From the NCBI GenBank assembly GCA_000091205.1, contig AP006497.2: 64,000 nucleotides of DNA. One strand, given 5' to 3'. Origin of the DNA: Cyanidioschyzon merolae. Its lineage: Eukaryota. The position numbers were made by a program, and so were the translations under genes. Below are positions 923 through 54,340 of this stretch, piece after piece; position 1 is the first letter of the stretch; the number at the start of each line of letters is the position of its first letter. The notes under the pieces are model-generated. The model ran no database searches. It saw only the letters and a list, made by a program, of their open reading frames with translations, and was not told where the DNA came from.

Positions 923-1587
923 CGCATCGACAGCTGCAGTGGGGATGCAGGATACGCGCGACGGCGAGCTAGTTCGTTCACGAACGTTTCGTGATCGGAG
1001 CACGAGTAGCGCGCTCGCTGGAAACAAGGTTGAAGAGCGCACGAGTTGTTTCGGGGGATACACGAACAAGCGTTCCCGAGTCGATTCTGGATCGAGGCAC
1101 AGCTGCTTCGGGAAAGCAACGGATCAGTGAGCGCGATGTCAATGTCAATGACGACAACAAGAACAACAACGACGAGGTCCGGGCGTCTTGTTGTTCATAT
1201 GCGGCTGCAGGGTATCTTTAGTCGTATTGAATCATAGAACAGTATGATCGTGTATCCGTGTTCGGGGTAAATCTTACGCTGTGAATATAAACGGCGCGAA
1301 AGTGTTACTGGATCGTTGAACGACACTCTACAGGTGCGTTGCTCTAGGCGAGCCTCCGATGTCCTTTGCTGCTGACCACGAAGTTTTTTCCCATCGCACG
1401 TCATCAGCGTTCCAATACAATACCCACACACACACACAGACAGAGAACTCAATGGAACCTCGAAAGTTCGCTCAGTACAAGGCCGCTAGACGCTGCAGAA
1501 GCACGAGACATCTCCGGATGTTGATCGAGGCGTTCAACTGTGTGTCTACAGAGAAGGAAACGTCAGCGCATGTGGTTGTTCGCGGGA

Positions 1588-1636
1588 ACACACACACACA
1601 CACACACACACAGACAGACACAGACAGACACACACG
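1588..1636. repeat. (CA)n/(GACA)n compound microsatellite; a shorter (CA)n lies at about 1426-1441
   Basis: acacacacacacacacacacagacagacacagacagacacacac seen directly. Confidence 0.9.
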
Positions 1637-4600
1637 CCACTGCAAACCTGTCAGGTTCGATTGCCTCGTCATCTGTGGTCCGGTCTGCCTAAAGTACACC
1701 ATTTCGTGGATCGCTCTCCGTTTTATGCTGTGCTTTTGTACCGGTTTCAGGGTGTAACCGGGCTTTTGATGCGTATCTTTCGTCGTGGACGCCTCCATGG
1801 GAATGGTACAGGGTGCGCTTCCTGCACTCGTTGGATGCTCTCGTCTGCGACACGCGATTACAGCCTTTGAGCGCTGCAGGATGCCCAGTGGTGCAGAATG
1901 GAACAAAACCACGCGACTCGATGGTCATTTGCTTTTCCAATTCATTGAAAAAGTTGGTGCATACATGCTCTCTGCCTCTGTACAACAGAGACCGTTCGCA
2001 ATTCTAGATCGATCCCGTGGAAACCGTCCAAGTATCGCCACATGCCCTTTATGGACGCGCGTATCCTCTCTAAACCGTAAAATTTCCTATACCAGTCAGT
2101 AGGTTTTTTCTGGAAGAGTGAAGTGAACGTACAATGCGAACAGAAGAGGGCGTACATCGTGACGCGCTCGAGAGTGCTCCGCATAGGGTTCGCATTTCAA
2201 GGTTGGTTTTGAGTTTTTTTGGTACCGCAGCTGGCGATATTCCAGGTGTCGACTCGATGCGGCGACCTGTAAAGTTAAGTTGGGAATCAAGTGTTCCATT
2301 CCCTGGACTTTTGCTCAGGTCGCACGGCGCATCCTGCCCCGCGCGCCAGCTGGGTTGTCGTGCGTAGCTTTCATCGACAAGTTCTGGATGAATGTGGATT
2401 GTTGGTTGTCCTGCGTCCGGACTCCTACGTACCGTTGCTTATCGACGTGCATCGAGAGAGTAGAGGCGACCGCTACTCGAATAAGAAGCCATACAATTGC
2501 TAATGGAGTACGGTCTTTCACTTTTCAGAGGAATCTCCCCGGTAATCGGTTATAGGAAGGAGGGGTTTAGAAGGGTTTCCGGCTGATCTTTCCACCCTGG
2601 CACTCTTCTCATTACTGTTCTTGCTTGTACTCTGTTCGGAAGGATGCTTCTCTTCATTGTCGGGCGGTTTGCGCGTTATATCCTTGGCTCGTCGGGGCGT
2701 CATCCATGAGGTCGCTGTACCCTGTATGCATTTTTCCACGCGATTCACATGTGTGGAGTTATCTGTCGGCCAGAGGCTGGTCTCGTCCATCCATGAATCT
2801 ACGAATCCTCGAGTACCTTTTCGTAGTTTTCTCTGTCGAAAGCACGCTCCAGGACCGGAGCGCATATATGCGCTCCGTGCTGCACTCAAACTGAAGAGCG
2901 ATAGTGCAGAACGGGGGCTCGTGAAGGTAGAGACCGACTTGTCGGAGAACAGAGCCACGGATGCGAACGCCGCATCGAGTGATTGAAGGTCGTATAAAAG
3001 GTGTTTGAGAAGAGATAGTTCGCCTTCGACTTAGTGAAACAGGGACAGAAAGCGGGTACGAAGTGCAGCTCAACGCTAGTCGCAGGCGCGTACTCCCTGA
3101 CCGCTGTTGCGTAATGTAAATCGACGTTGTCAAGAATCGTTACGAAAGATTTCCGGAAGCACAAGTCAGAGGGTGTTTCGGCGAAGGATTCGTTACTGAA
3201 CGCTCCTGAAGGTTAGGCGATTTGTAGTGTTCAAAGAACTAGATCGCTGCTGGGGCTCACGTTGTCGTCAAGCCAGGTTGTCTCGTCTTGATGGGCAGCA
3301 GTCCAGCGCTTCTTGAGTGCGCTTACACAAGTCGACTAATACTGCCGAGTAAATTCTGCTCGAATGAGACGGATACTTTTGACCCTTGTACGAAGAGCTC
3401 GAATTTCTCCTTGAAATTGATAGAATCTTGATCAGCGTGCGACGTTGTACCACGGAAACATGCGTGTTTCTTAGTCCTTCCGATTGTCTTCCTTGCGTAT
3501 GGAATCTCAAGTACGGAAACGTCGTATCTCGTGGCAGCTGCGGTAGTATTTTTCCGAACACGTATGGATTGGAACGGGTTCCCCGGGAGATGATTGTATA
3601 GATGAATTCTTGAAAGTTCTGAGTTCGGTGCATGATTCACAGAATCGGGACTGGATCAAGTGTGCTTCACACGCCTGCAGACAGCAGACGCCTGGTTTGC
3701 TCGTATTTTTGCGACCACGCGCTAGTTCACAAGAGTCTCATCTTCGCTTGACTGCGTGTGAGAAAACGGATAAAAACAGAAAACGCGTGCCGATGACCAT
3801 ATTCTAGAATTCAATGCGCTGCGAATGACCTGGGCATGTCGTGTGCAAGTCAGCCGATAGCGTTCTAAGTGCAGCATCGGCTGAGTGGACCGTATCACTT
3901 GGGTCAGCACAGAATGGGACACCGAACTGCTCGCGCTGTGTGTGCCTTGCGATTTTCGTCGCAACTTGGGCTTAGATATCTAGCTTCGACGTTCGGCATT
4001 GTAGCGGTATGAGGTTACGGGTTGATGGGAAGTTTCATCGCGCTCAGCAGTTCTTCAGGGGTGAATTTTCCGACTGTTCGACGCCTCTAGATCTTGTATA
4101 CAAGCCTCGACTCTGCTGTTTTCCTTAAGCGTACCATGTTCAAATCACGCATTCCTCAAGTTTTCGATCGTTCTGTTCCAAGGGAACTCGTGGGTGCAGC
4201 TGCTCGTGCGGCTGGACTCGCGAAGAGAGAAACTCGATGCTGCACCTAGGAAACTCCTTCAGATGTTCATGCCAAACGCCCAGTAATTGCCCTAAAAATG
4301 ATCGGTACCGTTCGAAAGACAAACCCACCACGCTTTACGTTCATCGACGAAAGAGCGTTCCATAGATGCGTGACATATGTAATGGGATATGCCTCCAGAG
4401 ACTCTATTTTCATCTGTTTATATGTCGTATTGTCTTGGACTCGAAGCTCGGTCACCGCGACATCGCGTGCAATGGAGCATCCGTTACCTCTTTGCACCAG
4501 GAGATCGAAGGTTATAGTCGGATGAAAAGTTTTCTCGACATCATCTCCTGCCTGAATGATCTCGTCGATACTTGCTTCATCATGGATCACATCGCATTCC

Positions 4601-5286
4601 ACAATTCTTCTTCTGATTGAGACAGCGTGCACTTGCGTGTTCAACGGATAAAGTACTCGCCGAGTGCATTCCCCGCAAAAGCCCCTGACCGTTGGGCACG
4701 ACATCGGTTTCGAACGCGGGAGCGGGCATCCAGCCCAGCCCTCTGTACACGTCAAGGGCTTCTACCGAGCGATGATGAAAGTCTCCACGCGCTACAGGTC
4801 AGCTCTTGGAGGAAAACGTGCGGTGGACATCTGGGAACACCTGATCGCAGCCAAGCTTCAATTTTACGAATGGCGAACCAGCGCTGTATGCAGAGAAGAA
4901 GAGCTTGGCAATCGACACGTAGATTCAACCGCGTAGCTGTACATGACATAAAAAAGCAGAATAGCCAGAGGTCGCGAAATGAAAAGGCGAGCGCTGCCGT
5001 CAACATCCTCTGACTGTTGACAAAGGAGCCAGAGATGCAAGAGAGATCGGCGTATTGAAAGACGACGATAACAAGAGAAAAGGAAGCAATCGCAGAAGAA
5101 GCCCACAAAAATTAGAATTCACGATCGTTGAAAGATATGCAAGCTTGATCGTATGCTTTCGAGTTTGCGCACTGCACGCACTCCATTTCATGCTCGTACG
5201 AGTCTAGCGCACGGGGTTGCGATGGATCCATCGAGACCCTGCAGCGCGCATCTTTCTCCAATGTCAAATTAATTCCAATAAATACA

Positions 5287-5919
5287 TTGAAATACAGTGT
5301 TGTATCGAAATGTGCTGGACATCATGGAGACGCGGCATGCGCGCAGTCGTCAGCATTCCAGCGAGCGTCTTGCAGGGCATCCAGCATACATAACTGCTTC
5401 GAAACGCGGTTGCGGTCCGTTCGACCGGCACCATCGCGTGCGCTCGTGTGTGCAGCGGTGGTGCTGGCCCTGCAGCAAGTGAGCTGGCGCTTGATGCATA
5501 CCTTGCACCTCGCAACGAAACAGCCGTTCGGCGTGCACTGTGTTGCAGTGTCGCCTAGGGGGCGCCGACGGCAGCAGCAGCAGCAGCAGCAGCAATATCC
5601 CCAAAAACGCACTGCAGGCGTGCCTCTCGCGTTTGGCGGCGGCTGGGAAGTCACCCTGGGATCGTTGCTTTCTACACTACTCGCCCTGGGGCTGGTGCTC
5701 TGGGCAGAACGAAGATCTTGCTCGGCTTGTCAGGGCACAGGCATGGCCCCGTGTCCATCCTGCAGGGGAACGGGCTGGGCGCCCGGCGCTCGTGCACAAG
5801 TCTGCGGACGTTGCGACGGCGTCGCACGCGTGCCTTGTCCGCGGTGTGCCGGGCGCCGGCCTCGTCAGCGGCAATCAAGCCGGCGATCGACAACATTCAC
5901 AACTCGAGGCGACAAGTGA
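5287..5919 (+). CDS. Possible DnaJ-type cysteine-rich zinc-finger (CxxCxGxG) membrane protein, BSD2/LQY1-like; start codon uncertain
   Basis: polyQ, then a hydrophobic segment LGSLLSTLLALGLVLWA, then CSACQGTGMAPCPSCRGTGW...CGRCDGVARVPCPRC (CxxCxGxG repeats typical of DnaJ CR-type zinc fingers). Confidence 0.35.
   Translation: MKYSVVSKCAGHHGDAACAQSSAFQRASCRASSIHNCFETRLRSVRPAPSRALVCAAVVLALQQVSWRLMHTLHLATKQPFGVHCVAVSPRGRRRQQQQQQQQYPQKRTAGVPLAFGGGWEVTLGSLLSTLLALGLVLWAERRSCSACQGTGMAPCPSCRGTGWAPGARAQVCGRCDGVARVPCPRCAGRRPRQRQSSRRSTTFTTRGDK
5566..5592. repeat. (CAG)9 microsatellite (polyQ in ORF 5287..5919)
   Basis: cagcagcagcagcagcagcagcagcaa. Confidence 0.9.
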
Positions 5920-10989: not shown

Positions 10990-11160
10990 CGATCTCCCGT
11001 CGGGCGTGCGGCGCATTCGAAGCGACCAAACAGAAGTTTCGGGAAATACCGGATTTTTTTCATTGACAAAACGTTTACTTGGGCCAGCGTACTCCGATTA
11101 TGCGCTTTTTTCTTTTCTTTCTTTTTTTGTGCTTTTTTTTTTCTGTGCGCGTTGAGGGAA
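10990..11160 (+). repeat. Partial copy (T-rich core) of dispersed repeat D (see 43575-44200 and 53590-54340)
   Basis: about 85% identity over roughly 130 nt to 53915-54025 (ccgattcttttcatggacaaaacgtttccatcggccagcgttctccgattacgcgcatttttcttttctt...). Confidence 0.7.
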
Positions 11161-19906: not shown

Positions 19907-21674
19907 CGATACGGTTCTGGGCGCGTAGGCTCAGCGCCGATCGTCTTCTCGCACCCGTACGTTGATTGTCGCCCTGTGTGTGTGTGTGTGTAGGATCGGC
20001 ATGCGAACATCGAAACGCTTTGATCTTTTACGGTTTCATCGTAGGTCGGTTTGTTCGGATACAATATTCGGATTATGAATGCTGTATTCAAGCAGAGGAC
20101 AAGACGAAGAAGGAGCCGGTGTTTAGGAGCAAGGATGAAGTACTCGAGCAACGTCGCGAGATGCGTTGCCGCAGCTCTATCAAGGTGTCTCGTACGCTGC
20201 AAGGAAATGGAAATCAATGCACAACGACGATGGAGACAGGCGGAATCCCATTTTGCATGCAATTTGCGAAACCGTTGCTTGATCCAGCCAACGAGGCTCA
20301 GGTTCGGCAGTTCAAGGTAGACGAAGAGAAAGATCTGGTGATGAGCGTGCATCTAGGATTGAAGAATATCGTGTTTGGTGGCTCAAAACCAAACCAAGAG
20401 GCCAGCGCCAAAGAGCGGAACGGAAAACGGATTAGGCTGGTTAAATTTTCCAGGGCGCGCTCGTCAACGAGAAACGCGCGCTATAAACGCCACGAGATAC
20501 ACCGACAAATGGAGTGGCAGCCTCAGTGCTCATCCAGACGCTCTGAGCACTCTTTCGAGCAGAGAACGATGCTTCACACACTTCATGACGTGGTTGTATA
20601 AGCGTTACAATGGCTCTCGAAGAGGATTTTTTCACTCGAGTACATGAGACCGTGCTGGGGCCGCAAACGCGGCTGCGGTTGTACCAAGACGGATCGGGCA
20701 CGTTACCCAATTTGTTCAATGCGATGGAAGAGGAATTGGAAATAAACGTCGTGTCGTTTGGTGGTCGCCTAAGCTGCTGAACGCGCTGTAGCGCACAAAG
20801 GGTACCATTCTGCTCCTTCGACGAGAGCGTACAGCTTGTGCAGGAATTGATTTATCCACATTCCCATCGATGAGTACAGAGTGACATGAACAGATGACGA
20901 GCACGGTTTTACGCTGTCACAAATAGAGAAGAAATGCGAAAAACAGACCCGAATCAACGAAATGGTGTACGGTACGCTGAACAGCCGTTCAAGATCTAGA
21001 CAATCGACGTTGAGACGCGTGCGATAATGTGATTCCACACGAGCAGCCAGGTGCGCAAACCCTTTCTGCACCCAGACTACAGCGCCTCGATTAACTTCAG
21101 GAGATCTTTGGTACCCTCGGAGCATCCGGATGATTTGTCTAGAGCATATATTCGAGACAATCGTTTGGTACTCAGGGTGGGTATTGTGATGGAAAAAAAG
21201 TCGTTGATCAGCAGAAAGAGAGAGCGTGTGTGCACTCTGTATTCCTGCCCGATCGCGAGCCCATGGTATGGTACGGTTCAGCGGAATCCAGGTACATCGG
21301 AGCGCCATATACGTACATATACCGAGAATAAATTTTCTGGGCAATTCTTCAACGATAACTGTTGTGCATGATACGATATTTCTGCGTATTCGTTATCCAG
21401 AGGCGGCGTACGGGAACTCCTAGGAAACGTGGAAATACATGGACAAACCTGTCTAAACTACAGCCGAAGCCGCATTCGTCACTCCAGATGGTGGACACGC
21501 GCGCTTCCCTTCCTTCCCTGACGTCGTTTCTTTTTCTGTGCTGCCGCCTGACGCAGACTACACAGATTGCGCACTGGAGGCTAGCTTTCTGAATAGTGTA
21601 CTAGGCTCTTCGCTAATGATCATACATACCTGAGGAGCAAGTCACTTTGAGCGTTTGCGGTCCGAATCTCACAC

Positions 21675-23427: not shown

Positions 23428-26106
23428 TCAGCTGAACAGGACCCCAAACGCCCAGGTGGCAGTCTCTCGAGTCGACTTTCGACGGCCACTGATACATAGT
23501 TTTTCTACAATGGGGCGCAGCCAACCGAGCTCACGGAGTGCGGACACCGCGGCCGGGCCAAAGGTCTGTCCGATATCACCCATGACACCCACAACTGCGC
23601 GCAGCATATCCTCATCGTCCACAACCTCTTGGCTGACCTGCTCGCAGAACCGGATGACCCACTCAACTTGCTGGCGATCGATAAGAAGCCCGGCTTTCTG
23701 AGCAGCATTCAATCCGTTGATAATCCCCGTGTAAGCGTCCAGAATACACTGCCGCATTTCCAGGATCCAATCATTGGTCTCATCGTCAAGCACGGGTGTT
23801 TGCAACGTCGACCAGGCTGCGTGTTGCAAAGCGGCAATGCAGGGGTCCAGGTAAGGCTCGAAAGCTCCCTCCAGGGCCAGCGCAATATCCCCAATACAAC
23901 AGAGGATTGGAGGCTTCACTGTCCGGTTCAGGAGAGTGTTCTCGAGCGCCGCAAGCAGCACTTGGACGGTTTCAGCTGCGAAGGGCTCGAAGCGCTTCTC
24001 CAGCGCCCTACAGATATCGCTTATTGTGCCAATTGCAACCGCGCAAACATGGTAGGCCTCCCAATTGCGCACACTTGCGAGGACAAATGGCATAGCGCGA
24101 GCTGCATACGACGCAAATGCGTGTTCCACTGCGGAGGCAATCGAACCAAGGGCCATCAAGGCATCCTCGTGCACTGCAACGGAACGATTTCGATTGAGCA
24201 CTTGCAGAATCATCTCCACTAGGCGAGAGGTAGTACCCTCCAGTAGCGGTGGATCAAGATGCTGGACGAATACCTGAATGAGTCCGCATAAGAGGCCTTG
24301 AATTTCTATCTGGAACGCTGGCTGATTTGCAGACGCTGCAAGCATCGCATCAGATTCCTGTAACGCCCTTTCCAGGCTGTGCATGGTGAGCGGTAAATAC
24401 TCTCGGGCTAGTGACCTGGCATTTTCAGGTGAGCTCTGCTGCACCAAAGCAATCAGCGTTTCGTACGACGATGCCAACAAGTTCCATTCATCCGCATCAT
24501 CGCGTTGCGCCGTCTGCCACAAGGCGTTCGCCAGCGTCAACGTAGCCGCCGAAATACTTGCCAGCGCTTCCGCCGACTCGTGTTGTGTTTCTATCAAGGA
24601 GGTGAGGGCGTAACAGGCACTTCGTGCAACCCGAGGAGTATCCGCAAGCGCTCTCATCAGTGCGGTCAGTGCCGCTTCTATGACATTCGCATTGAGGTGC
24701 GTTACCAGATGGGCAATCAAGCGACCGAGGCTCCATGCTGCTGTATCGCGGACTGCCTCGTTCTGCGCGGTTTCCAGCATCCGCAGGGGAAGCGCGAAAA
24801 CTTCCAGTGTGGTCTGCTCGTCGTTGGCGCTCGTAAACGTCACTGCGATGGAGCCGACAGCGACCAGTGCCGCCTCGTGGGATCGCCAATCCCGTTGAAC
24901 ATCCAGATGCTCTCGAATAAATGGCACAGCAGCCTCCAGTGTTGCTTTCGGAGCGACCTGCGCAAACAGAGAAACGCATGCACTTGCAGCTAGGACTCGA
25001 TTCCAGTTCTCGCCTTCGACGTCCTCGTCCTCGTCGCGCCGGATCAGACACTGAGTGAGGAGCGGAATTAGCGCTGGCGCTGCCTGCTCCACGATCCCCA
25101 AGTACGCTGTCTCTAGCGTGCCATTCTGTAAGAGTTGATGCTCTTCCAGACGCTTGATCTCGACATCGGCCACGGATGACCAGAACTCTATCGCTTGCAC
25201 CGCAACATCCTCCTGATCGTACTGAATCGCATGACATGTGAGCTGAAAAGCCATCTCGATAAAAGTGAGTGGTGGATTAGAGGGGCTCGGACAGGCAAGT
25301 TTCTCATAATACTGGCTCGCTATACCAACCAGGCACTCGTAGGCGCTGCGTCGGAGCTCGGCATCGGCAGGCTCAGCCGCCGCCATCATCACGGTGCGCA
25401 TGATCATATCGCGCTCGACTTCGTTCTCCATATTCTGTGCGACGAAAGCCAAGGCGTTGAAGAGCGCAGTCGTTGCAGCCCGTCGAACGAGCGTATTCTC
25501 CTTCGGAACGGGCGGCTCGGTGGGCGTGGTCTCATGATCGCCGCGCATGCCTTGAACCAGCGCCGTTAGGATCAGGTTCGACTGGTGGGCGATAACCCCC
25601 GCGACGGACGGTTCCTCGCAAATGTAGCCCAGTGCCTCGACACAGCCGTGTTTCAGAGCATCGCTAGAACCAGCCTGGGTCAGCGGTTGGACCAGCTGCT
25701 CGATCAGTTGGGGCCACTGGCCGTGCGGAAGCTCCACCACCGCAACCTGAGCGAGCGCTTGCGCAGCCTGTCGTCGGACTGAGGCTCCCCCCTGTACAGT
25801 ACCCAGCGCCTGAATAAGCACACAGTGTACTTGCTTTCGCTCTGCAGCACCAATCTGAGCAAGCCAGCGCTCTGTAGCGCCCTCTTTTGCGGAGCCAAAA
25901 CGCCCACTGAGCGAGTTTTTGAGCAGGATACCCGCCAACTGTCGCGCTTGAATCGGCGCCGTCCCATCGGCCAACAGCCCAACTAGATCAAGCACGAATC
26001 GTACGTATTCATCGTTTTCCAGACGAAATAACTCTGCTTCGGCGGCCTCTCGAGCTTGATGATCTGGTGATTGCGCCTGTAACAGCAGAGGCGCGAGCTG
26101 ACTCAT
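23428..26106 (-). CDS. Importin subunit beta-1 (karyopherin beta)
   Basis: The ORF has an importin-N start (MSQLAPLLLQAQSPDHQAREAAEAEL). Blocks collinear with KPNB1 HEAT repeats run through the ORF: GQWPQLIEQLV, LKHGCVEALGYICEE, VRRAATTALFNAL, AVQAIEFWSSV, FIREHLDVQRDWRSHEAALVAVGSI, VRDTAAWSLGRL, HVCAVAIGTISDICRAL, ILCCIGDIALAL, ILDAYTGIINGL, ATWAFGVL. Confidence 0.9.
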   Translation of the reverse strand: MSQLAPLLLQAQSPDHQAREAAEAELFRLENDEYVRFVLDLVGLLADGTAPIQARQLAGILLKNSLSGRFGSAKEGATERWLAQIGAAERKQVHCVLIQALGTVQGGASVRRQAAQALAQVAVVELPHGQWPQLIEQLVQPLTQAGSSDALKHGCVEALGYICEEPSVAGVIAHQSNLILTALVQGMRGDHETTPTEPPVPKENTLVRRAATTALFNALAFVAQNMENEVERDMIMRTVMMAAAEPADAELRRSAYECLVGIASQYYEKLACPSPSNPPLTFIEMAFQLTCHAIQYDQEDVAVQAIEFWSSVADVEIKRLEEHQLLQNGTLETAYLGIVEQAAPALIPLLTQCLIRRDEDEDVEGENWNRVLAASACVSLFAQVAPKATLEAAVPFIREHLDVQRDWRSHEAALVAVGSIAVTFTSANDEQTTLEVFALPLRMLETAQNEAVRDTAAWSLGRLIAHLVTHLNANVIEAALTALMRALADTPRVARSACYALTSLIETQHESAEALASISAATLTLANALWQTAQRDDADEWNLLASSYETLIALVQQSSPENARSLAREYLPLTMHSLERALQESDAMLAASANQPAFQIEIQGLLCGLIQVFVQHLDPPLLEGTTSRLVEMILQVLNRNRSVAVHEDALMALGSIASAVEHAFASYAARAMPFVLASVRNWEAYHVCAVAIGTISDICRALEKRFEPFAAETVQVLLAALENTLLNRTVKPPILCCIGDIALALEGAFEPYLDPCIAALQHAAWSTLQTPVLDDETNDWILEMRQCILDAYTGIINGLNAAQKAGLLIDRQQVEWVIRFCEQVSQEVVDDEDMLRAVVGVMGDIGQTFGPAAVSALRELGWLRPIVEKLCISGRRKSTRETATWAFGVLFS

Positions 26107-26504
26107 GAAAACGGCGCGTTACCTGGCGTTCGGGCTAAGAGGTTCACGCGATCTGTCCACGGATGAATCAGGTTCAGAGCCTCAGCTTTGCTACACCGCT
26201 GAGAACCTGCCAATGGATCTCACCCTTTCTGCAAGAAAGCGCCTCGCAGAGCGGCGTCTAACCTCTTCCAAACAACACCCCGGGCTAACTGCGACGCTGC
26301 CCAGAGCACGAGTGCACAGCAGCGCGGCTTCGACGTCTGCGTTGTGCCGCTGCCGCCGAACTGGCAGCCGCGCCGACGTCCATCCACAGGCGCGATCGCG
26401 TAGGCGGACACGAGCGCCGTGCAGCATGCGTCTATCGGCTGTCAACTCAAGTGTGTTTCATCCGCGGGTGCGTTGCAACGAATGCTTTTTCGCAGGGTAT
26501 AACA

Positions 26505-27893
26505 GGGGATGGAATTCACGATACAATGTACCGTATCGATCGTAGATCAGTTGGATGTCGGATATGGATTCTTTACTGAACAGGGCAAAGAGGACTGCAT
26601 TCCGCCTTCGGGTCTCTCATAGGGTCGTACTCAAATGGCTGAGGAATATTGAAAGAAACGTGCAGATGTACTCCGTACCAAAAACTGGTATTCTCTAATA
26701 CTGCTTGCGGTCTATGGTAGAAAACGACCAGTTGATCGCCTTTTGCGGAAGGTAAAAGCGATAATAATAGACACCAGCGGCGTCTCTGTTTCTCAACAGG
26801 TGGTTCATGTGGACGTGAAATCTCTGGGATCCAATCGCAGAAAAAGTACGAGTTCACGCACAGCCATCTTCCACGGAAATCGCAACTACGGAATTCCTGG
26901 AACGTCAAGATCGGTATGAAGTAGACGAACGTCAATTTGTTTCTGCAGAAGATGTGAGTTCCTTCTGAGGAAACGATCGGAACGTCTATCGGTACGCGCG
27001 GAGCAGGGCACCAGTTTTGTGTACGATTGAATTCGAAGAGAACGGCGACATCATCTGCTCTAGGCGCAGTGGATTCATTTGGCAGCCTCAGCGTCGCTCC
27101 TCGAGAAGGCGCTTACCAAAGCACCCACTTGGTTGAACCATTGAAGATCTTCCCGAATGTCTGGCGAAGGCCTTCCATTGGACAACATACCCTTTCACCA
27201 TTCCACATGCGTTCGAGCTTTTCTTCGATTCTATCGGGGCAGAGCTGCTTTTCATTCCTCCATACCCTCAGAGATTCATCCCCATGAAACAAGTGTTTGC
27301 CATCGTGAAGCGTAATGATCCCTCCACTGCACGAATCCATGAATCGTTCTGCTCACGGTGACTCACAGGGACATATTTCGCCGTCCTTCCGCAAATCTAT
27401 CTCGCTCCTGCAAGGTCCTCAGCTAGGGACATAAAGAAGTGCTTTCATTTTGAAGAAAAAATGTTCAAGGCATGAGCTGAGTTGTAACCTTCAGCAGGTC
27501 GAGCTCGAAACAAGGCAGCCGAGCGCTTCTGCGATAGAAAAGTACGGAAAGCTGATAGACCACCAAATGGTAATGAGGGCACGGCCTCGAGGACTCCTTG
27601 CGCTGGTAAGTTCCACTAGCGGTAGAGCATGCAAGGAGGTCGCGAACCGAGACTGCAACGTCGCCACCAAGATCAGATGATATGCGGTGCCAAAGACGAG
27701 ACTCCCGGAGCTGACGCGATCCAACTTTCTGGGGCAGCCTCTCAGGCTCGAAGGGTGTTCGGATAAAAAATGAAACCTTTAGCAGGAAGCCGGTCAAAAA
27801 ATGCTGAAAGGCCTCTGCCGATGGATATCCATTTCCCCTACAGGGCCGTCGGACATTTTGTTTCACTGACGACGTTTGTATACGCGCAGGTTT
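26505..27893 (+). mobile_element. Non-autonomous (internally deleted) derivative of the Fanzor/TnpB-family element: roughly 0.85-kb left-end region joined to a degenerate C-terminal/RE segment; no intact ORF
   Basis: 26505-27390 aligns (same orientation) with 47352-48240 of the full copy. 27450-27680 translates to RARPRGLLALVSSTSGRACKEVANRDCNVATKIR, a decayed version of KVRGLLAFVSTTNDGKKRMEFVNRDFNAAINIRR. The 3' 200 nt align with the right end of copies at 50400-50613, ending ...gtttgtatacgcgcaggtt. Confidence 0.75.
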
Positions 27894-33686: not shown

Positions 33687-34480
33687 TTATTAGAACCCCA
33701 CCAGAAGAAACGCATTTTCCCACGGAAGCGGCAGCGAACGCCGTTCAACAGTCGAAAGTCGCCAGCAGTGTACAGTAGTTGCGAATGACCTGCCCTAGAC
33801 GAGACACGTCCGAATGACGTGCAGACGCCTCCCAGTATTTTTGGACCGGCCACCGACTACTGGTTCCATTTTTTTCTCATATAATCTAACCTTGAGATGT
33901 TGCCCTGCAAAAATTTCTCTTGTCATCTCTGGAGGCCTCTTGTCCATCACCGCACGTCTCCTGATATTGATAGTGGCATTAAAGTCTCGATTCACAAACT
34001 CCATGCGTTTCCTGCCATTGGTAGTTGTATTCATTAGTGCGAGTAGTCCGCGAATTTTCGCCTTAGTTTCCATTTGCACTTCCGCCAGCGCTTTGTACTT
34101 TTTTACACCCTCAAGGCTCGGCTGACACTGCTCCATCTTGACCTTCTGGAGCGTACACCACAGCTCGTGGCGTATGTTGGATGTTCGGAACTCATATATC
34201 GGTATTGTGACGAAACATCGTGCGCATTCCTTGTACGCTCATTGCGAGTTGCTGTAAACCGGAAACGAAATTCTCCTCGACAAGCCATAAAAGTGGTGTT
34301 GTGGCTTTCCGCCAGACACGGTGGCTGTTTTTGCCGTGTCCATGGTCCCGCAGGCGTGTCCCGGAGTGCGCTGACTCCATAAAAGCCGCGAGTTCGCGCT
34401 GCTGCCCTGGCATCGGGGTGCTGGCGGCTCCACAGCACAGATACCTCATGATGTGCGGGCGAAGCATGCTGCTTCAGCAC
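33687..34480 (-). mobile_element. 5'-truncated copy of the Fanzor/TnpB-family element (RuvC-II, Zn-finger region, RuvC-III and right end retained)
   Basis: Minus-strand translation IYEFRTSNIRHELWCTLQKV...KIRGLLALMNTTTNGRKRMEFVNRDFNATINIRRRAVMDKRPPEMTRE...YEKKMEPVVGGRSKNTGRRLHV; right end aligns with other copies and stops at about 33687, 40 nt upstream of the DnaJ ATG (33646). Confidence 0.8.
33795..34480 (-). pseudogene. C-terminal fragment of the TnpB/Fanzor-like nuclease gene (broken frames upstream of RuvC-II)
   Basis: ORFs 33795..34136 and 34192..34467 are in different frames but collinear with the C-terminal third of copies at 40.5-42.9 kb and 48.3-50.5 kb. Confidence 0.75.
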
Positions 34481-34779: not shown

Positions 34780-35672
34780 GCTAGGCGAGAGCGATCCGTT
34801 TGCGAATCATTTCGGAATGCGAATTCGATGTTCATGAGTGTCTTCCCGTAGTAATGCCTCTTTACTTCAGGTTCGAGGCGCGCCTGTTCGAGTTGGTTTA
34901 GCGCTTGCGTTCGAGCTTTTTGTCGATTCCATCGGGAAGCAGACCTGCTTTTTATTCTTCCTTGCACTCCGTGATTCAAGCCCATCACAGACGTGTTTTC
35001 TATCGTGAAACGTAATGATCGCTGCACTGGGCGAATCGCTGAAGCGTTCTGCACAATCACGTCGGAGCATATATCGTCGTTTTTCAGCAAGTCTTTCTCC
35101 CTCCGGGCAGGTCGTCGACTACGGGCATTCAGAAGTACGTGCATTTGTCGAAATAGAAAATCCATGCGAAAAGTATGGACATGAAAGTTAGGGATCCCGG
35201 AGGGTCGTCATTGCCAGGCGCCGGAAAAATGGATATATTGCTCTCCTCGTCGACCAGTGAGCGAAGAAGAGCAAGCGAAGATGATGACGAAGAAGAAGAG
35301 AATAGATAGGCGAGAAAAGATGGATGCCCGACGAGACGCTGGCGATTCTTTATTAGCACTGACGGCGCGAGTTCTAGCAATCCTGGCAATCGTGCGTTCA
35401 ACCGTCGACGATGCTCGCATGTAGCTCGTGAACCGAGACTTCACTGTCACCATCAATATCAGACGATGCGCGGTGCAGGAAACGATACCCGAGGAGCTAT
35501 GACGATCCAACTTCGTAGGGCATGCGCTCAGGCTCGACGCGTGCCTGGATACACTGAAGCTGCCAGCAGGTGGCTGGTCAGAAAAAATGGGAGGCTTCTG
35601 CACGCGGGCACCAGTTTAACCTCCATGGGCGCGAAATGCCTATCGTTTTACTGACTACAGACGTTCATTCTC
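34780..35672 (+). mobile_element. 5'-truncated non-autonomous derivative of the same family (3' part of left-end region + degenerate RuvC-III/RE segment), head-to-head with the fragment at 33687-34480
   Basis: 34860-35400 aligns with 48040-48520 (gcgttcgagctttttgtcgattccatcggg..., gtgttttctatcgtgaaacgtaatgatcgc..., gacgagacgctggcga). 35420-35500 translates to LVNRDFTVTINIRRCAVQETIPEEL; right end aligns with other copies to about 35672. Confidence 0.7.
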
Positions 35673-40574: not shown

Positions 40575-43090
40575 ACCCCTGGAAACAAACGTCTTTCAAA
40601 AGAAAAACGATGCAGCCTGCGGTATACAGAAATGGCGCGCAGCGCGCCCGAGTCAGAACGTCTCCAGCTGACGTGCAGTCGCCTCCCCGTCTTTTTGGAC
40701 CGGCAACCTACTACTGATTCCAACTTTTTTTCATATAATTCCACTTTGGGAGGTTTTCCAACAACGTTCTCTCTTGTCAACTCTGGAGGTCTTTTCTCGA
40801 GCACCGCACATCTCCTTATATTGATGGCGGCGTTAAAGTCTCGGTTCGCAAACTCCATACGTTTCTTGCCATCATTGGTTGTACTTACTGATGCAAGCAA
40901 TCCTCGAACTTTCGCTCTCCTTTCCATTTGCTCTTCCGTCAGCGCTCCGTACTTTTTCGTATCCTCAGGGCTCCGCTAGCACTTTTCCATCTCCACCCTC
41001 TGAAGTGTACACCCCAGTTCATGGTGTGTATACGATGTTCGAAACTCATCCATTGGTATCGTAACGAAACGCCTCGCGCACTCCTTGTACGTTCTTGTCG
41101 TTGGAGCTGGAGTAGTCCCTTTTTGGGTCTTCCAGCGCCCTGCTCCGTACCCTGCTACGAGCCTCTGACTTTTATCCTCCTTCAGGGCACTCAACTGATT
41201 GAAAAAACTCTCGAACGCACGCTGCTTACCACACTATAGATTCATTCGCAAACGAGCCCACCGGGGCTTGGTATACTCCTCCCACAATGCATTCCAATGA
41301 GCAACGCGAACTTCCATGAATTTCCGAAAAGCTTTAAAGTCCGCTCCTCGGCTCGTCACCTCGCTCACAGCTTCCAGGTGCTCGTTCATTCCTGCATTCC
41401 ATTTCTCGATTTTCTTCCTCGTATTCATGATTCCCGATTCTCGATGGTATCTCGCTCTCGAGAACCTCAAAAGACGCATATCTTTCTGATGCAAGGTACC
41501 GTCAGTACCATCTTCCCCACGCTTCGGTGCTGCGATGGTTATGATACTTGTGTTTCCAGCGTCCGCGCCAACGACAAAGTCGTTCTCGTGCATCTTCTGT
41601 GTCGCAGGACCCGCCTTCTTCTCATCTTCATGGTTCTCCGAGGGCGGAACGGGCCGATCCACACTCAACCGCCGATAGTGTATGCACCTGGCTACTCCAT
41701 CGGTTTCGATCATCCCAGTGAATACCTTTTGTCTGCTTACTTTCAGACGTTTGAAATCGAAGATACTCTTCCGGGGCATCTCCCGGTTTTCGTCGGTGAA
41801 CTCCTCCCTGCGAACATCGAACTCCGGACAGATCTCCTTCAAGATGCCATGAAGGATTCTCGAGTCCATAGTCACAAAATGTGACTTGATATTGCAAATT
41901 GGAACCATGTTGAAGCGCTTCCCCATTAGGGCCGACTTCCGCCTCTCCCACTCTTTATTTGTCTCCTCACTCAGCTTCCTCTCTGCCTGGCGTTCGAGTT
42001 CTCGGTCCAGAACCACAGAATAGCGCAGGACGAGGCGATAGTATCTTTCCTTAACTTTTTTTCAACTCTGATATCTTTTCTGTTGGATTCGCCAGCTCCA
42101 AGACTGCACGGTGCTCTTGTATTACGGCACGGATGACGGAGTCCTCATTCATGCTCTGGTTTGACGCCTTCTTGTCGACGAATTCGATCTCATCTTCATG
42201 CTTACGATCGTTCGTGGTGCCATTGAGGTCCGCCTATACTCCATTGCGAGAGATGCGCGGGTAGCGTGCAAACACGGCACGTATCATGAAACGTTCGAGG
42301 TTCATTGTCAAATGGTTCTTCAGATTCGTGAGGTATTTCATGGCCCCATAGTCCTAAATATCCCGGTCACCCCTATACCGAGTACCCTCGAAGCGGAATT
42401 CCGGGAAGGTTTCGTGGAGGACATGCACTGCTCATTTTCCCTCCGCGCTTTCGCTGTACCAAGCATCAGGTGACGAATAAACGTCGTGTCGAAGAATTCT
42501 TCCGGAATCTCGACTGTTTCCATGTGCGTCACGTCGCGATACATCTCCTTCACCAAATGCATCAGTCCTATAGAGTCCATACGAACCCTCGTGAAGTACG
42601 AATCAACATAATTTCTGATGGCCTCTCGCAGATTTTGCTTGTGCGGATCCTGAATATGGCCTAGATGGCATGATTTCTTTACAATCTTGAAGTAGGGTCG
42701 TCTTTCGAGTTGCATTTGGCGCCGGGCCCCCCCTTGTTTTGCGTCATCGTCGTGTCTTGTTTCTCTTCGGTCGGTATTCTTTTTCGCTTTTTCCGCTAGC
42801 CGGCGACGCTGCCCCTCCAGGATCCTCCACTTCCTTTTCCATAACTTTCCTCTTTTATTTTTTTGTAACGCACTTTGAACGCTTCTGCTATAAACCGCGA
42901 AAAAAACACGAGAATACACTTGTTTGAGGTTTGAGACACAAATGAACGGAAAAACTGTACTTTGCTACAACTTTAACGCAAGTACAACTTTTATATTAGA
43001 GCAGCACGCTATTGATCAGGATCGCGTTTCCCTTCAGCTGCGGGATGCGCGTCGTGACTCGAAAACTAACAGATCTCCCTGGTGCGCAAA
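40575..43090 (-). mobile_element. Near full-length copy of the Fanzor/TnpB-family element (copy D), with a truncated left end
   Basis: Collinear on the minus strand with copy 47352-50613 from the N-terminal basic region (42919) to the right end (acccctggaaac at 40575-40586); about 75-80% nucleotide identity. Confidence 0.85.
40660..42919 (-). pseudogene. TnpB/Fanzor-like RuvC nuclease gene, inactivated (at least 3 frameshifts, 2 in-frame TAG stops)
   Basis: ORFs 42338..42919, 41234..42016, 40976..41194 and 40493..40927 form one collinear protein: N-terminal KRKWRILEGQRRRLAEKAKKN (basic), [17 protein letters not shown] (RuvC-I), IPMDEFRTSYTHHELGC (RuvC-II), NRDFNAAINIRRC (RuvC-III). TAG replaces Tyr at 41234-36 and Gln at 40976-78 relative to the other copy. 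Confidence 0.85.
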
Positions 43091-43574
43091 TCGATAGCGC
43101 TATGTAGAACAAAGAACAGAGACTCACGACTAGCGAGCAACGATACAGCAATTTCTCTCCCGTTCTACGATAAACGTTGAAAACGGGGAAAAGGTTCCCA
43201 TATTCTGAAGAGTCCTCCCTCTAGGCGAAAAGTCCCGCGAGCCGGACGAGTCTCCCGGACTCGTGCTTCGTGCTCCACCCAGTAGCGGGCGCTGTGGCGA
43301 GACCTGAGCAGTTCGTCCGCAACGCGGTTCATTCTGGGACTAGATGCGGGATGCTGTGTTTGGTCGTCGCCCTGATCGCAGTAGACTCCTAATATATCGG
43401 TTCGCGCTTTCGCAGGCAGTAGTTCTGTCTGTTTAGCCTACAGGCTCCCAGAATTATTCTGGACTCCAACGCTGTATCAGGTAAAGCGTTCCTCAATCCG
43501 TCGCCCTCAGTGGTATGGCAACGCTGTTCTATCTCCATGATGCATCCGTCCCAGTGGTATAGGCGCTAAGGCGG

Positions 43575-44200
43575 GTGCCCAAAGCAGGCACTCGGTCGCA
43601 CTACAGAACGCACAAAACGATCTGTACATCCGAAAGGAAGTATAAGGAACGGAGCATGGAGGTAGAGTGCATCATGATGGACACTTTTTCGATCAGCTAT
43701 ACCCATCCATCTCGCTATCTGGAATCCAAGTACAATGTAAACGTTTTGTCATTGGAGAGAAATCAGCGGCAACAGCAAATGCAGCGGATTTTGTTCCATG
43801 TGAAAACTTCTCACACAGGCGAGCGTGCCGCGACTCTGTGTGCTTGCTACCTGCGCGCGGTGAAACTTTCGTCGTTCCACGCTTTACGTCCGAGTTTCAT
43901 AACCCATACTTCTTCTCGGATGTACTGGCGTTTCAGACGTACTATCGGGCGCCGAGTGCCTGCCCGTGAACATCCGCCTCAATAGCGCTTGTAGCGCCGG
44001 TGCTGTCGTAGCACAGAAACAGAACGGCGTTGCCGTACCGCAGACGGCGTCTGCTCGAGGCATGCTTCACCTGACGTAGAACTGGGTCTCGTTGTCAGGT
44101 TGTGCTCGGACAGCCTGCGGATGCAAAACTTGCTTTCGCTGCACAACACATTGGAGAAACTTGGCTGTTACGATGAATCCTGGGAGCCGCCTCTCTCCTG
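43575..44200 (+). repeat. Dispersed repeat D (about 0.6 kb) lying 0.5 kb upstream of petC
   Basis: 43860-44200 aligns at roughly 80% with 54000-54340 (for example aatagcgcttgtagcgccggtgctgtcgtagcacag...gagaaacttggctgttacgatgaatcctggga); weaker similarity extends to 43660 / 53690. Confidence 0.75.
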
Positions 44201-44701
44201 CGTGATCGTACATGGAAAGCGTCGCCCTCGGTTGGCGACTCGGGTCTGTGCTTGGCACCCACCAGTGAGTAGGTACGCGTAACACTGGTCCCGTGTGCGC
44301 ATCTGGTTTGCTGGACCTTCCACCTAGAAGGTAGAGTATGAGTTCGCTGACCACTGGTGAGTGCTGGAGCTCAGTTACGGGACCATCAGTTGCTAGCACT
44401 ACACTCAAAGTAAGTGGCTGGCCTTCATTTACCACAGTGATTCCCAGATGTTAATGTCTCTCAAAGAGATAGCTGCGTTCTTTTTTTCCAGCACAGGCAC
44501 AGAAAGCTTAAGTGTGCTGGCGTCTCTGGCATCCCGATTCCGCTGCACCGAACGCCGCGATCCTTCGAAGCCCTGCATCGCGAGCACGCTGCCGCCCATC
44601 GTCGATGATCACGAAACGATTTTTCCGTTCGTGTTGCATGAACGTTTGCGTTCTTACTTGATTGCAACTCGCAGTTTCATTGTTGTGTATAACGCTGGAT
44701 A

Positions 44702-46668: not shown

Positions 46669-47351
46669 GGCAAAAACGCAACTCGTGAACGTCCCCCGGC
46701 TGCTGGGTTTTCCTCTCGCAACAAGCTCGACTCGAAAGGCAGCGAGATGTCTACCGAAACATTCCAAGCGTTTTACGGATCAGTGCGCCCTCAGCAGCGC
46801 CGTGCGGAAAAGCGCTCTGAACGATTGGATGGGATCCAGATGCCTATGCTGCAGGGTATTTCCTGTGAATGCAGAGCACTCGTTTCCGGTTTCTATGTTG
46901 CCGTCGCATGCACAGGTGTAAGCGGACAGTGAATTGACCTCTTGCGCTGCACTCGTGAAATGTCGAGCACGAATTCATCCATGTCAAACTGAAATGGTAT
47001 TTGCCGCAAGCTTCCCATGAAGAGGCATTTGCTGGTCGCATTTGGACTTTGGAAGCGATGCTGAAGACAAGTTCATCGCCGCGAACTCGCGTTGGAGCGG
47101 GATGCTTTGGCATTTCGCGACTGCAAAGCAACGTTCAGTGAGTGCTGGTGAGTGCCAGCACGCACATGCCAGCACCATGCCCTGAACAGACCCAGAAAAC
47201 GAATCGACGCGAATGTTTAGCTGCTTTTTCACCAGATGTGTCATATTGGCATCTATCGGATGCGTGAACGCTACCATCAAAGAGGCCCGAGGTTTCCGTT
47301 CTTGTAGTCTTTGTACTAAATTCTGTTTCACTTCCGCTGCGATGTCTAGAA

Positions 47352-50300
47352 GGAGATCGAAATCACAATGCAATGCATAGTGTAGATCGTAGATGATTTG
47401 CATGTAGCATATACATTCATTTCTGAACAGTGCAAGGAAGACTGTATTCCTCGTTTAGGACAGTCATACCACCGTACTCAGATGGTTGGCAAACACTGTA
47501 AGAAAAATGTAGATGCACTCCGTGCCAGAGATCGATATTCATTGAGGTCGCTTGCAGTCGATCTTAGAAAACGATCCGTTGATCACCATTTTCGGAAAGC
47601 AACAGCGACGATAATAGCCGCCACAGGCGTCACCGTTTCTCAACAGCTTATTCTTATGATCCCGAAAACATTGGGATACAATCTCAAAAAAAGTCATCGT
47701 TCAAGCAAAGGCATCTTCCATCCAAATCGCAACGACAGAGTCCCTGGAACGTCACGATCGATAGGAACCACTGGATCGTCAGTTTGTTTGTTCAGTTGAT
47801 GAAAATTGCTTCAGAAGGCACGCTCGGAGCGTCAATGGGTATTCGAGGTGAAGGGCGCCCGTTGTACGTTCGATCGAGCTCGAAGAGAACGACGAAATCA
47901 TCATCTATTATAGCTTTAGAAGATTTATTTGGCGGCCTCAGTTTCACTTGTAGAAAAGACACATGCAACAGCACCAACCAATTTGTCCAAGCATTGAAGA
48001 CTTTTACCCGACGTCTGGCGACGTCCTTCTATTGGGCAACGTGGCATATCACCATATCGCTTGCGTTCGAGCTTTTTGCCGATTCTATCGGGGTAGGGGT
48101 GATTTTTGTTCGTCTGTGCGCTCCGTGGTTCAAGCGCATTGTAGGAGTGTTTTCTATCGTGAAACGTGATGATCGCTCCCCCGGGCGAAACGCTGAGCGT
48201 TCATCACTCGGTAACACATCGGGGTACATGCCATTTATCTTGCGAAAGCCACGCTCCCTCCGAGAAAGCCCTCATCTAAGGGCAAAAAACGTGCGGTCGT
48301 TTTGACGAAATAAAACTCCAAAACAAAGCTATGCACGTGCAAGTCGGGGATCCTGAAGGGCCCTTGCCGCCGGCTGGCAGAAAAAAACGAAAAATTCTGC
48401 CAATGGAATAGGAACAAAACAGAACGAAGAAGCAAAAGGGCGAGGCCCGACGTCAAAAGCTGCGCGAAAGACGACTATGCGACGAGACGCTGGCGAAAGC
48501 CTGTCTTGGTAACCATATCAAGGATTCGGACAAGCAAACATGCAACAAGTCATCCGAGACCGTGTCGAGTCGCACTCCATGAGTATTGTAAAGGATTCTT
48601 CAGGACTAATGCCTTTGACGAAGGAGATGAATCGCGGCGTGACGGGCATCAAAACAGTCGAGGTTCCGGGAGAATTTTTCAACACCATCGTTATGCATCA
48701 CCTGATGCTTGGCACAGGGGAAACGTCGAGGAGAAAGGAGCGAATGCATGCCCTCCACAAAATTACCCCGAATACCCTTTTCATCGGTAATCGATACCGG
48801 CGTGACTCGGATATTTACACGTACGGGGCGAAAAAGTACCTCACGAACCTAAAGAACCATATGAACATGAACCTCACACGTTTCATGATACGTTCCGTCT
48901 TCGCGCTGGACCCGTGCCTCTTTCGCAAAGCGATAGACGGGTTACCATCAATGGCATCTCGAACGATAGTAAGAACGAACAGGAGATCGAACTCGTCGAC
49001 AAGAAGACCTCGCACAGGAGCATGAATGAGGCTTCTGTCATCCGCGCGGCTATTCAAGAGCACCGTGCACTCTTGGGGCTCGTTGACCCAGCAGAACAGG
49101 TATCAGAGATGAAAAAGATGGAAAAAGAAAGATGTTACCCACACTTCCTGCGCTATTTCGTGTATTTGGACCAAGAACTCGAACGCAAGGCTGGGATGGA
49201 GCAGGGTGTGCGGAAAAATGCAGAGTCGGTAGAACGGAAGGCTGCGCTTGCGGGTACGCGCTTCGAAGTCGTTCGGTTATGCGAGATCAAGTCGCACTTT
49301 GTGACAATCGACTCCAGAGTCCTTTACGGAATACTGAAGGAGATAAGTTCGGGGCTCGATGTACGCAACAAGGAGTTCACCGGTGAAAATCGGGACACGT
49401 ACTGGACGCATGTCTTCGACGTCAAGCGTCTCAATACGAGCCAGAAAAGGTATTCAGAGGTGTCATCGAAACTAAATGAGTAGCCATGTGTGCACACGAT
49501 CGGCGCTTGAAGGCAGATCGTCATATCGTGCCTTCGGCTTCGCCCGTGACGAAGCATGAAGATGTGAAGCAGGCGGATCCCGCGACGCAGGAGGTTCAGG
49601 ATACTGGCTTTGGCGGCGGCGCGGACCCTGGGATGACGAATATCATAACGATCGCAGCACCGAAGCGTGCGGGAGATGGTGCTGATGGTAACCTGCGTCA
49701 GATAGAAATGCGTCTCTTGAGGTTCTCGAGACCGAGATACTACCGAGAATCCGGTTCAATGAATGCGAGGAAGAAAATCGAGACATGGAATGCAGGAGTC
49801 AAGGATCAGCTGGAAGCTATGAGCGAGGTGACGATCCGACATGCGGACTTTCAAGATCTGCCAGAGTTCATGGACACTCAAGCTGCTCATGTCGAGGAGC
49901 TGCGGAAAGAGTATCGAAAACAAAGGTGCGCTCGTCAGCGTTTGAATCTGTACAGAGAGAACCAGCGTGCATACGCCAACGATTTCAATCCGTTGAGCGC
50001 CTTGAAGGAGGACGAGAGTCAGAGGCTGGTAGAAGCGTATGGGGCAGCGCGCTAGCTGGCCCGAAAAGGGACTACGCCAGCTCCAACGACAAGAACACTC
50101 AAAGAGCGTACACGGCGTTTTGTTACGATACCAATAGGTGAGTTCCGAACATCGTATACACACCATGAAGTGAGGTGCGTACTTCAGAGGGTCGAGATGG
50201 AAACGTGCCAGCGGAGCCAAGAGGATATAAAAAAGTACAGACCGCTGACGGAGGAGCAAATGGGAAGGAGGGCAAAAGTTCGCGGACTCCTTGCATTCGT

Positions 50301-50613
50301 GAGTACAACCAATGATGGCAAGAAACGCATGGAGTTTGTGAACCGAGACTTTAACGCCGCAATCAACATCAGAAGATGTGCGCAGCTGGAGAAAAGACCT
50401 CCAGAGTTGACACGAGAGAGAATTTTGTCAGACGACCTCTCAAGGTCGAAGTATACGAGAAAAAGTTGAAACCAGTAGCAGGTGGCCGGTCGAGAAAGTC
50501 GGGAAGGCGTCTGTACGTCGGCGTATAGGCATCCGATCTGCGGCGCGCCGCTCGCCACTCCTGTACCCCTAGCGACAGCGTTTTTCTTGTGAAAGGCGTT
50601 TGTTTCCAGGGGT
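47352..50613 (+). mobile_element. Full-length copy of the Fanzor/TnpB-family element (copy E): roughly 1-kb non-coding left-end region, nuclease gene, roughly 90-nt right end
   Basis: Left-end region shared with 26505-27390 and 34860-35400; ORF segments 48331-50525; right end gtttttcttgtgaaaggcgtttgtttccaggggt conserved in all five copies, ending at about 50613. Confidence 0.85.
48331..50525 (+). pseudogene. TnpB/Fanzor-like RuvC nuclease gene, inactivated (at least 3 frameshifts, 1 in-frame TAG)
   Basis: ORFs 48540..49025, 48914..49483, 49486..50055 and 50170..50469 lie in frames 0/2/1/1. Motifs: PAGRKKRKI (NLS-like), GGGADPGMTNIITIAAP (RuvC-I), IPIGEFRTSYTHHEVRC (RuvC-II), NRDFNAAINIRRC (RuvC-III). 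TAG at 50053-55 where copy D has Trp. Confidence 0.85.
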
Positions 50614-53589: not shown

Positions 53590-54340
53590 CTAAACTGTGA
53601 AAGCGACAGCAAATGCGCCCACGCAGAGCCAGGTGTCGATCATCGGAGAATGTCCGAGCGACTGCGAGCGTGCCTGTTTGCATCGCTGCGCGCCTCCGCG
53701 CGTAACCGCTATGTTTTTCGTGGAATACGACGTCTGCGATGAACCTGAATATCTCGAGTACGTGATTGTTGTCGGCAACGAGAAAACAGGCGACAATTCC
53801 TTTTCAGATGGTTTGATGCTTCACGCCTGCCAGCACAGTCTCTCGATTCGAACATAGGATTCGACTCAACGACTTTTGGGCTACAGTGCTCACTCGACGG
53901 TAAGCTCGCCACGACATCCGATTCTTTTCATGGACAAAACGTTTCCATCGGCCAGCGTTCTCCGATTACGCGCATTTTTCTTTTCTTACTTTTTTTGTGT
54001 TTTTTTTTCAGTGCGCGGTGAGGTATCCACCAAATCCCCTACTTCCATGTTACATTACCTGCACTTCGTCTCGGATATTCTGGTCGTTTCATACGTCCTA
54101 TCGTGTGTGCCTAGTACCTGCCGAAAGCGACAGCAATAGCGCCTACAGCGCCAGTGCGGTCGCTGCACGGAGACAGAGCGGCGTTGCCGTAACACAAAGG
54201 GCGGCGGCTCGAGGCGTGGCTCACCCGACGTAGAATCGGGTCTCGTCGTCAGTTTGTGCTCGGAGAGTCTGCGGATGCAGGCTTGTCTTCGCAGCACGAC
54301 ACGCTGGAGAAACTTGGCTGTTAGGATATATCCTGGGAAC
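53590..54340 (+). repeat. Dispersed repeat D, second copy, about 0.4 kb upstream of the kinesin gene
   Basis: Aligns with 43575-44200 and (T-rich core) with 10990-11160. Confidence 0.75.

Follow-up and report, generated by a model that had tools for sequence, protein, structure and literature searches.

The spacer between the divergently transcribed importin-beta gene and a ThiF-family E1-like gene of Cyanidioschyzon merolae contains a segment that looks like a mobile element reduced to its two ends, which raises the question of whether such a copy was mobilised in trans, as the original prediction held, or is the decayed remainder of a single insertion. We favour the second answer: this segment, hereafter copy C, is probably an inert relic that arose by neutral decay of one old CMe-1 insertion with a 1.83-kb internal deletion, and we infer that it does nothing today. 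The window referred to below is the whole 64-kb stretch of DNA that was analysed.

Family membership and anatomy of copy C

One Fanzor1 family, CMe-1A, has been described in C. merolae, with a consensus of 3169 bp that encodes a 734-aa Fanzor1 protein (Bao & Jurka 2013, Mobile DNA 4:12, PMC3627910). It comprises ~150 old copies, each ~80% identical to the consensus, has neither inverted repeats nor determinable target duplications, contains no recognised transposase, and was labelled 'non-autonomous' and left unclassified; a separate short element of ~635 bp, TE-N2_CMe, corresponds to the 5' end of CMe-1A and is present in ~70 copies (Bao & Jurka 2013, PMC3627910). The window was mapped against the CMe-1A consensus, which was taken from the supplement of that paper (Bao & Jurka 2013). 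As judged from its sequence, copy C is a member of this already published CMe-1 Fanzor1 element family, within which its 5' module (referred to as L) places it in a minor subfamily.

With the stitched translation of copy B, the canonical copy of the window, as query, 38 close homologues were found, among them P0001, an intact protein of 752 aa, and a profile search over 1.84 billion representatives returned 2795 relatives. When a profile built from 104 relatives was compared with the PDB, the matches were Fanzor1 structures only (9cf0, PpFz1, 1.4e-23; 8gkh, SpuFz1, 2.7e-18; 9cer, GtFz1, 5.7e-12). This deep profile alone worked, the PDB searches with the single sequence and with a shallow profile giving no match. 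Pfam returned no match for the fragments of the window copies, a weak precomputed DUF8286 being the sole domain in any copy, and the AlphaFold model of P0001 was unusable (mean pLDDT 40). The consensus and its relatives carry the motifs GADPG, DEFRTS and NRDFNAAINIRR, and the RuvC triad is present (D in GADPG, E in DEFRTS and D in NRD). We also observed within the Fanzor1 ORF a 75-nt tandem repeat (...ATQEVQDND...), the copy number of which varies (L004 7223-7377; L035 2548-2702; P0001 residues ~390-470).

In a self-BLASTN of the window, copy C matches copy A in two blocks: a left block (26504-27461 versus 47351-48313, 70.6% over 968 nt, E 1e-124) and a right block (27471-27817 versus 50164-50513, 67.6% over 352 nt, E 4e-24). 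The right block was also recovered against the CMe-1A consensus by BLASTN (27471-27818 versus 2736-3084, 69.9%, E 3e-36) and, over the same 27471-27818, by nhmmer (E 1.5e-43). The interval absent from copy C is 48323-50160 of copy A, which equals consensus 903-2735 (~1.84 kb) and corresponds to Fanzor1 codons 1 to ~610, RuvC-I and RuvC-II included. The left boundary is fuzzy (~26470-26504) and coincides with that of copy A (47351), while the right end falls at 27879-27893 depending on the alignment used, so that the right part reaches within ~15-25 nt of the family end. Outside both ends, the comparison of copies A, C and D revealed no similarity above that of shuffled sequence. Given the block matches to copy A, the spelling of the ORF and flanks that align no better than shuffles, the anatomy of copy C is real and far beyond chance. 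Overall, its identity to the consensus is 66-70%, compared with 81-90% for the other copies.

These alignments, and an ORF that ends as quoted, confirm the original prediction of a left end fused to a degenerate stub with a decayed RuvC-III region. They also bear out the view that this is an internal-deletion copy of a Fanzor-bearing element retaining both termini, as the left boundary is that of copy A and the right end is reached. The predicted sizes need correction: the left part measures 0.965 kb and not 0.85 kb, and the right part ~0.41-0.42 kb and not ~230 nt; 231 nt is the length of the ORF only, not of the whole right part.

The order across the junction of copy C is module L, then 35 nt equal to consensus 868-902, then consensus 2736. 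The left breakpoint lies 3-4 nt 5' of the Fanzor ATG (consensus 906), and, with copies C, A, D, B and E aligned next to one another, a microhomology of 2-4 nt at most is possible. The Fanzor1 remnant begins ~8 codons past the RuvC-II motif DEFRTS, and copy C therefore retains only a damaged RuvC-III: of the RuvC triad it keeps NRD alone, followed 3' by a broken NAAxNI motif and then the stop. The ORF at 27450-27680 has a C-terminus that reads ...RPRGLLALVSSTSGRACKEVANRDCNVATKIR before the stop, where the aligned consensus has ...RAKVRGLLALVSTTSDGKKRMEFVNRDFNAAINIRR. As its RuvC-III motif is broken and its frame holds a stop codon, copy C cannot make the nuclease.

Table 1. Features of copy C and other CMe-1 and TE-N2-like pieces in the 64-kb window.
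Feature	Position	Strand	Description
Copy C (relic)	26504 to ~27890		5' module and 3' remnant of a Fanzor1 element
5' module L of copy C	26504-27468	+	Non-coding, subfamily-specific; 70.6% identity to 47351-48322
Deletion junction	27465-27472	+	...TTCAAGG joined to CATGAGCTG...; consensus ~902 joined to ~2736
Fanzor1 ORF remnant, codons ~611-727	27469-27820	+	In frame, 1 stop codon; BLASTN, nhmmer and translation
Decayed RuvC-III motif ANRDCNVATKIR, then stop	27642-27680	+	Consensus reads VNRDFNAAINIRR
3' terminal region and right end	27821-27893	+	~25 nt shorter than in other copies; alignments
Copy A	47351-50600	+	Sole long L-type copy found; L at 47351-48287, then frameshifted Fanzor1 gene
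Copy B	40588-43762	-	Full-length canonical CMe-1A; consensus 3-3169, 85%; published 5' region, without L
Copy D, sister relic	34899-35610	+	L positions 706-965, consensus 862-1071, consensus 2840-3087
Copy E	33737-34255	-	Solo 3' end; consensus ~2650-3169, 81%
Further family fragment	20704-20930		
Short family piece	11050-11157		
Solo TE-N2-like piece	43866-44339		
Solo TE-N2-like piece	53931-54256		

The 5' module and the 3' end of the family

No published description of an L-type subfamily was found, and module L is the only detail of this analysis that may be new. Its final ~35 nt (~27434-27468) is the stretch equal to consensus 868-902, directly 5' of the Fanzor1 ATG. An nhmmer profile of L matches three places only (26504-27468, 47351-48321 and 34900-35157), and neither BLASTN nor nhmmer profiles detected similarity between L and consensus 1-867. 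The profile of the canonical 5' region, for its part, matches copy B, several other loci and solo copies, and never L. The full canonical 5' region is present in copy B and at the loci L013 and L015a, and its last ~250 nt only in L004 (which holds the intact relative P0001), L015b and L017. Since these other copies bear the canonical 5' region, whole or in part, L is a subfamily-specific replacement and not a family-wide terminus. Taken with the relationship of TE-N2_CMe to the family, module L shows the 5' modules in front of the Fanzor1 gene to be interchangeable.

The coding capacity of L was also examined. A decayed IS607-type serine recombinase, for which HTH-like and 'VSVSQQ' strings had made L a candidate, was rejected, as the stitched translations of copies A and C gave no Pfam match at E 10. 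The minus-strand frame of L in copy C has 1 stop in 256-259 codons (P ~0.004 versus Markov shuffles), and L of copy A has a 240-codon open frame on the plus strand, which is the strand opposite to that of the long frame in copy C. A minus-strand protein was likewise rejected, with 0 homologues among 5.8 billion proteins and frames that are unconserved in the orthologue. Over L, 13 sites distinguish copy A from its orthologue L007 (8/4/1 by codon position), in which a new stop is also found; in this comparison of orthologous sequences, L shows no coding constraint. The differences between A and C in L (99/83/95 by codon position) are uninformative as to codon periodicity, because both copies decayed neutrally after insertion.

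The 3' end of the consensus folds into a subterminal and a terminal hairpin, which were compared at 50505-50600, 40590-40685 and 27795-27893 of the window and at 11340-11432 of L015. The subterminal hairpin reads GCCGCCA...TGGCGGC, with one compensatory pair in L015b (GTCGCCA...TGGCGAC), and the terminal hairpin occurs in two variants with a different pairing register, CGTTTTTC-TTTT-GAAAGGCG and CGTTCGA-CTT-TCGAACG. In copy C, 27868-27890 is still able to fold as a hairpin (z-score -2.25), the z-scores of the 3' hairpin folds being overall only -0.5 to -2.3. The RNAalifold consensus of ten copies is weak (-13.4 kcal/mol, with one compensatory pair), and an Rfam search for an omega RNA in the family 3' end gave no match.

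As for the flanks, the 5' side is T/C-rich in 4/4 canonical copies (tttctctcca, ctccgctctc, ttcgttttc and tttttttt; sites at window 43752-43790, L013 ~8300, L015 ~8930 and L017 ~14213). The 3' flanks start with G(A/G)TG(G/A)(T/C)G in 6/11 copies, which may reflect a target preference or a few extra element bases. In copy C itself, no terminal inverted repeats were found and no target-site duplication was seen at its ends, the boundaries of which are uncertain by 5-30 nt. We also considered L035 and L038 as a young transposed pair, given that they carry an identical 449-aa Fanzor fragment (P0016), upstream of IF-2 in one case and of a DAO-family oxidase gene in the other. The two elements are strongly divergent over their final 90 nt, and they are probably a chimeric metagenome contig or a product of gene conversion, not a fresh transposition. 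Because of these strongly diverging 3' ends and their likely origin, the two were left out of the definition of the element end.

A sister relic, neighbouring copies and the history of the locus

Copies C and D are sister relics with different internal deletions, a detail that, like the existence of a subfamily with a wholly different 5' module, is perhaps of use to specialists. In copy D, 35125-35345 equals consensus 862-1071 and 35361-35604 equals consensus 2840-3087, which leaves a deletion of consensus 1072-2839 with breakpoints that differ from those of copy C. The two deletions overlap by 1.66 kb: D holds 170 nt of 5' coding region missing in C, and C holds ~100 nt missing in D. Moreover, D is devoid of the first 705 nt of L, i.e., of the left terminus. 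Common to the two copies are 29 derived substitutions (7/8/12 by codon position) as well as a 3-nt deletion; both are ~25 nt shorter near the right end than other copies, and each is 61-66% identical to the consensus over the 3' region, where the other copies are 81-90% identical. Since the shared substitutions show no clear excess at third codon positions, the common ancestor of C and D may already have been dead when copied. Among the 38 close protein homologues, no relative of the C/D stubs exceeds ~50%, and an intact parent of this lineage was therefore not found.

The homology between C and D halts at the family right end, short of the flanks, a pattern that, on present alignments, fits element-bounded copying better than arbitrary segmental duplication. 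Their sisterhood and overlapping deletions could mean that copying took place at least once after the element had been gutted. In the 3'-retaining relics E, C and D, the inner breakpoints lie at consensus ~2650, 2736 and 2840, within 190 nt of a 3.2-kb element; this clustering, in a small sample, hints at a preferential retention of the last 0.35-0.5 kb.

The window, above all between 20704 and 54338, is crowded with CMe-1/TE-N2 relics, with 9 pieces in 64 kb versus a genome average of roughly 1 per 75 kb. The three L-bearing copies (A, C and D) all lie inside 21 kb, and copy A matches consensus 868-3169 at 82% over 48288-50598. The corresponding consensus matches of copies B and E, both on the minus strand, span 43752-40590 and 34240-33737. 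Another repeat adjoins TE-N2-like pieces (L004 4391-5599; window 43866-44500; L017 814-2710). Its ORF in L004, of 255 aa (4832-5599), has a zinc-finger-like CPCY...CPRW motif, read by eye only, and neighbouring ORFs in L017 have a reverse-transcriptase domain (RVT_1); together these ORFs suggest that a non-LTR retroelement lies in a cluster with the Fanzor copies.

Regarding the locus itself, the ORF at 23428-26106 encodes an importin-beta that matches BAM81441.1 of C. merolae 10D exactly. In sister species, the importin of which is 70-73% identical, the syntenic spacer measures 1.1-1.9 kb and has no homology to the family, whereas the C. merolae spacer of 3.07 kb equals ~1.67 kb plus the relic. 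This comparison fits an insertion of copy C within the C. merolae lineage. The sister-species spacers do not align well enough for an empty site, and with it the exact insertion point or a target duplication, to be read from them. Metagenome contigs of related strains (L001 and L023) are 99.5% identical across the locus and contain the relic, which is thus fixed in close strains. Many metagenome contigs (L024-L031, orthologues of ~26340) stop just short of the relic, 200-250 nt upstream of the start of the importin, as is common for assemblies at repeats.

No second copy with the junction of copy C was found in the window, at 12 other family loci of related strains or in one low-sensitivity metagenome scan, and we have no evidence from these sources for an amplification of the deleted form. 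The scan used an exact 25-base pattern from L, which is insensitive to copies ~80% identical to the consensus; it returned orthologues of A and D only and missed the known orthologue of C.

Origin of the relic and comparison with known systems

Under the reading that we consider probable, an L-type CMe-1 copy would have entered the importin-beta/ThiF spacer as a discrete unit, as indicated by its sharp ends and unrelated flanks. A single deletion of ~1.83 kb, from near the Fanzor ATG to codon ~610, would have removed RuvC-I and RuvC-II, presumably either at this site or already in the ancestor shared by C and D, and the remainder would have decayed to ~70% identity. That the CMe-1 family was once active is clear, and the original prediction is supported on this point.

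The same prediction went further, to a non-autonomous derivative mobilised in trans that would mark the parts required in cis; in this view the copy would be a Ds-like deletion derivative, made in transposition or gap repair and moved by the machinery of other copies. We regard this as unlikely, even if several observations agree with it: both family boundaries are retained between unrelated flanks, sister relic D has an overlapping yet different deletion, the 7/8/12 distribution allows an ancestor that was already dead when copied, E, C and D have inner breakpoints close to one another, and the Fanzor1 carriers of Chlamydomonas have internal deletions together with intact 3' ends (Bao & Jurka 2013, PMC3627910). 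However, the searches described above found no sibling with the same junction, D differs in its breakpoints and has no left terminus, and neither inverted repeats nor target duplications were found. Module L is absent from all other family copies examined (B, L013, L015a, L004, L015b and L017), and given that most copies are without it, L is not a generally required end. Moreover, the 5'-only piece TE-N2_CMe has reached ~70 copies without a right end, which argues that both ends are not needed. Fanzor acts as an RNA-guided nuclease and is not known to be the enzyme by which such elements move. As the family encodes no known transposase, full-length copies are equally reliant on outside machinery, and the loss of Fanzor neither defines non-autonomy nor adds dependence. 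Mobilisation in trans and a cis requirement for both ends are thus not supported. The observation named in advance as refuting the idea, that short copies share one breakpoint and the same flanks, was not made; the idea is weakened, not refuted.

The sisterhood of C and D admits two further accounts. It is quite unlikely, in our estimate, that both go back to the copying of an element already without its nuclease, with L and the last ~0.4 kb, including the two 3' hairpins, being enough for mobility; if so, a rolling-circle mechanism resembling that of Helitron2 would be indicated for CMe-1 by the T-rich 5' flanks, the 3' hairpins and the partial copies biased to the 3' end. We give still less credence to a local duplication, in place of transposition, of one decaying copy within a repeat-rich 10-kb neighbourhood, an account that is compatible with copy C being a relic. 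The two sisters are indeed 8.4 kb apart in the same orientation, with three L copies within 21 kb, but they share no flank, their common segment stops at the family right end, and each keeps sequence missing from the other. Finally, there may have been no deletion at all, if an independent L happened to adjoin a separate 5'-truncated 3' fragment like copy E. L bears no relation to the canonical 5' region, a solo 3' end does exist in copy E, and just 35 nt separate the junction of copy C from the point where L gives way to canonical sequence (consensus 868). Such a chance adjacency is nevertheless hardly credible, as copy C keeps consensus 868-902 linking L to the Fanzor gene in the same order as in A and D; this 35-nt linker, common to the three copies, indicates that the link between L and the gene predates copy C.

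Read as a decayed single insertion, copy C is an ordinary decay product, one more of the ~150 copies of a published family, and matters little as it stands. If gutted copies proved to be amplified, the limits of the cis-acting parts of this unclassified eukaryotic element would become apparent from them, which could help to settle how Fanzor1 carriers move in C. merolae.

The closest known system is CMe-1A (Bao & Jurka 2013, PMC3627910), which comes from the same genome, consists likewise of old copies without inverted repeats or target duplications, and aligns with the 3' 0.35 kb of the relic. The relic differs from it by the loss of consensus 903-2735 and by its 5' 0.93 kb (L), which replaces consensus 1-867. 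TE-N2_CMe is, like the relic, a short geneless derivative or partner of the CMe-1 family, but it consists of the 5' part alone, whereas the relic has a different 5' module and the 3' end. IS607-type elements have a tnpA serine recombinase in addition to tnpB, and a serine recombinase gene was not found in L (Pfam, E 10). The deletion derivatives of Ac/Ds and P elements resemble the relic in having an internal deletion with both ends kept, but they belong to families with a known transposase, inverted repeats, target duplications and large numbers of amplified deletion copies, none of which is shown for the relic. Another likeness is to CRe-1/2/3, the Fanzor1-carrying non-autonomous Helitron2 elements of Chlamydomonas, the copies of which are frequently 5'-truncated and often internally deleted too, almost all of them retaining the 3' end (Bao & Jurka 2013, PMC3627910). 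Copies E, C and D similarly keep the 3' end, and CMe-1 has 3' hairpins and T/C-rich 5' flanks. Unlike CRe-1/2/3, CMe-1A was left unclassified (Bao & Jurka 2013, PMC3627910), and a Helitron2-type affiliation of CMe-1 is a candidate reading.
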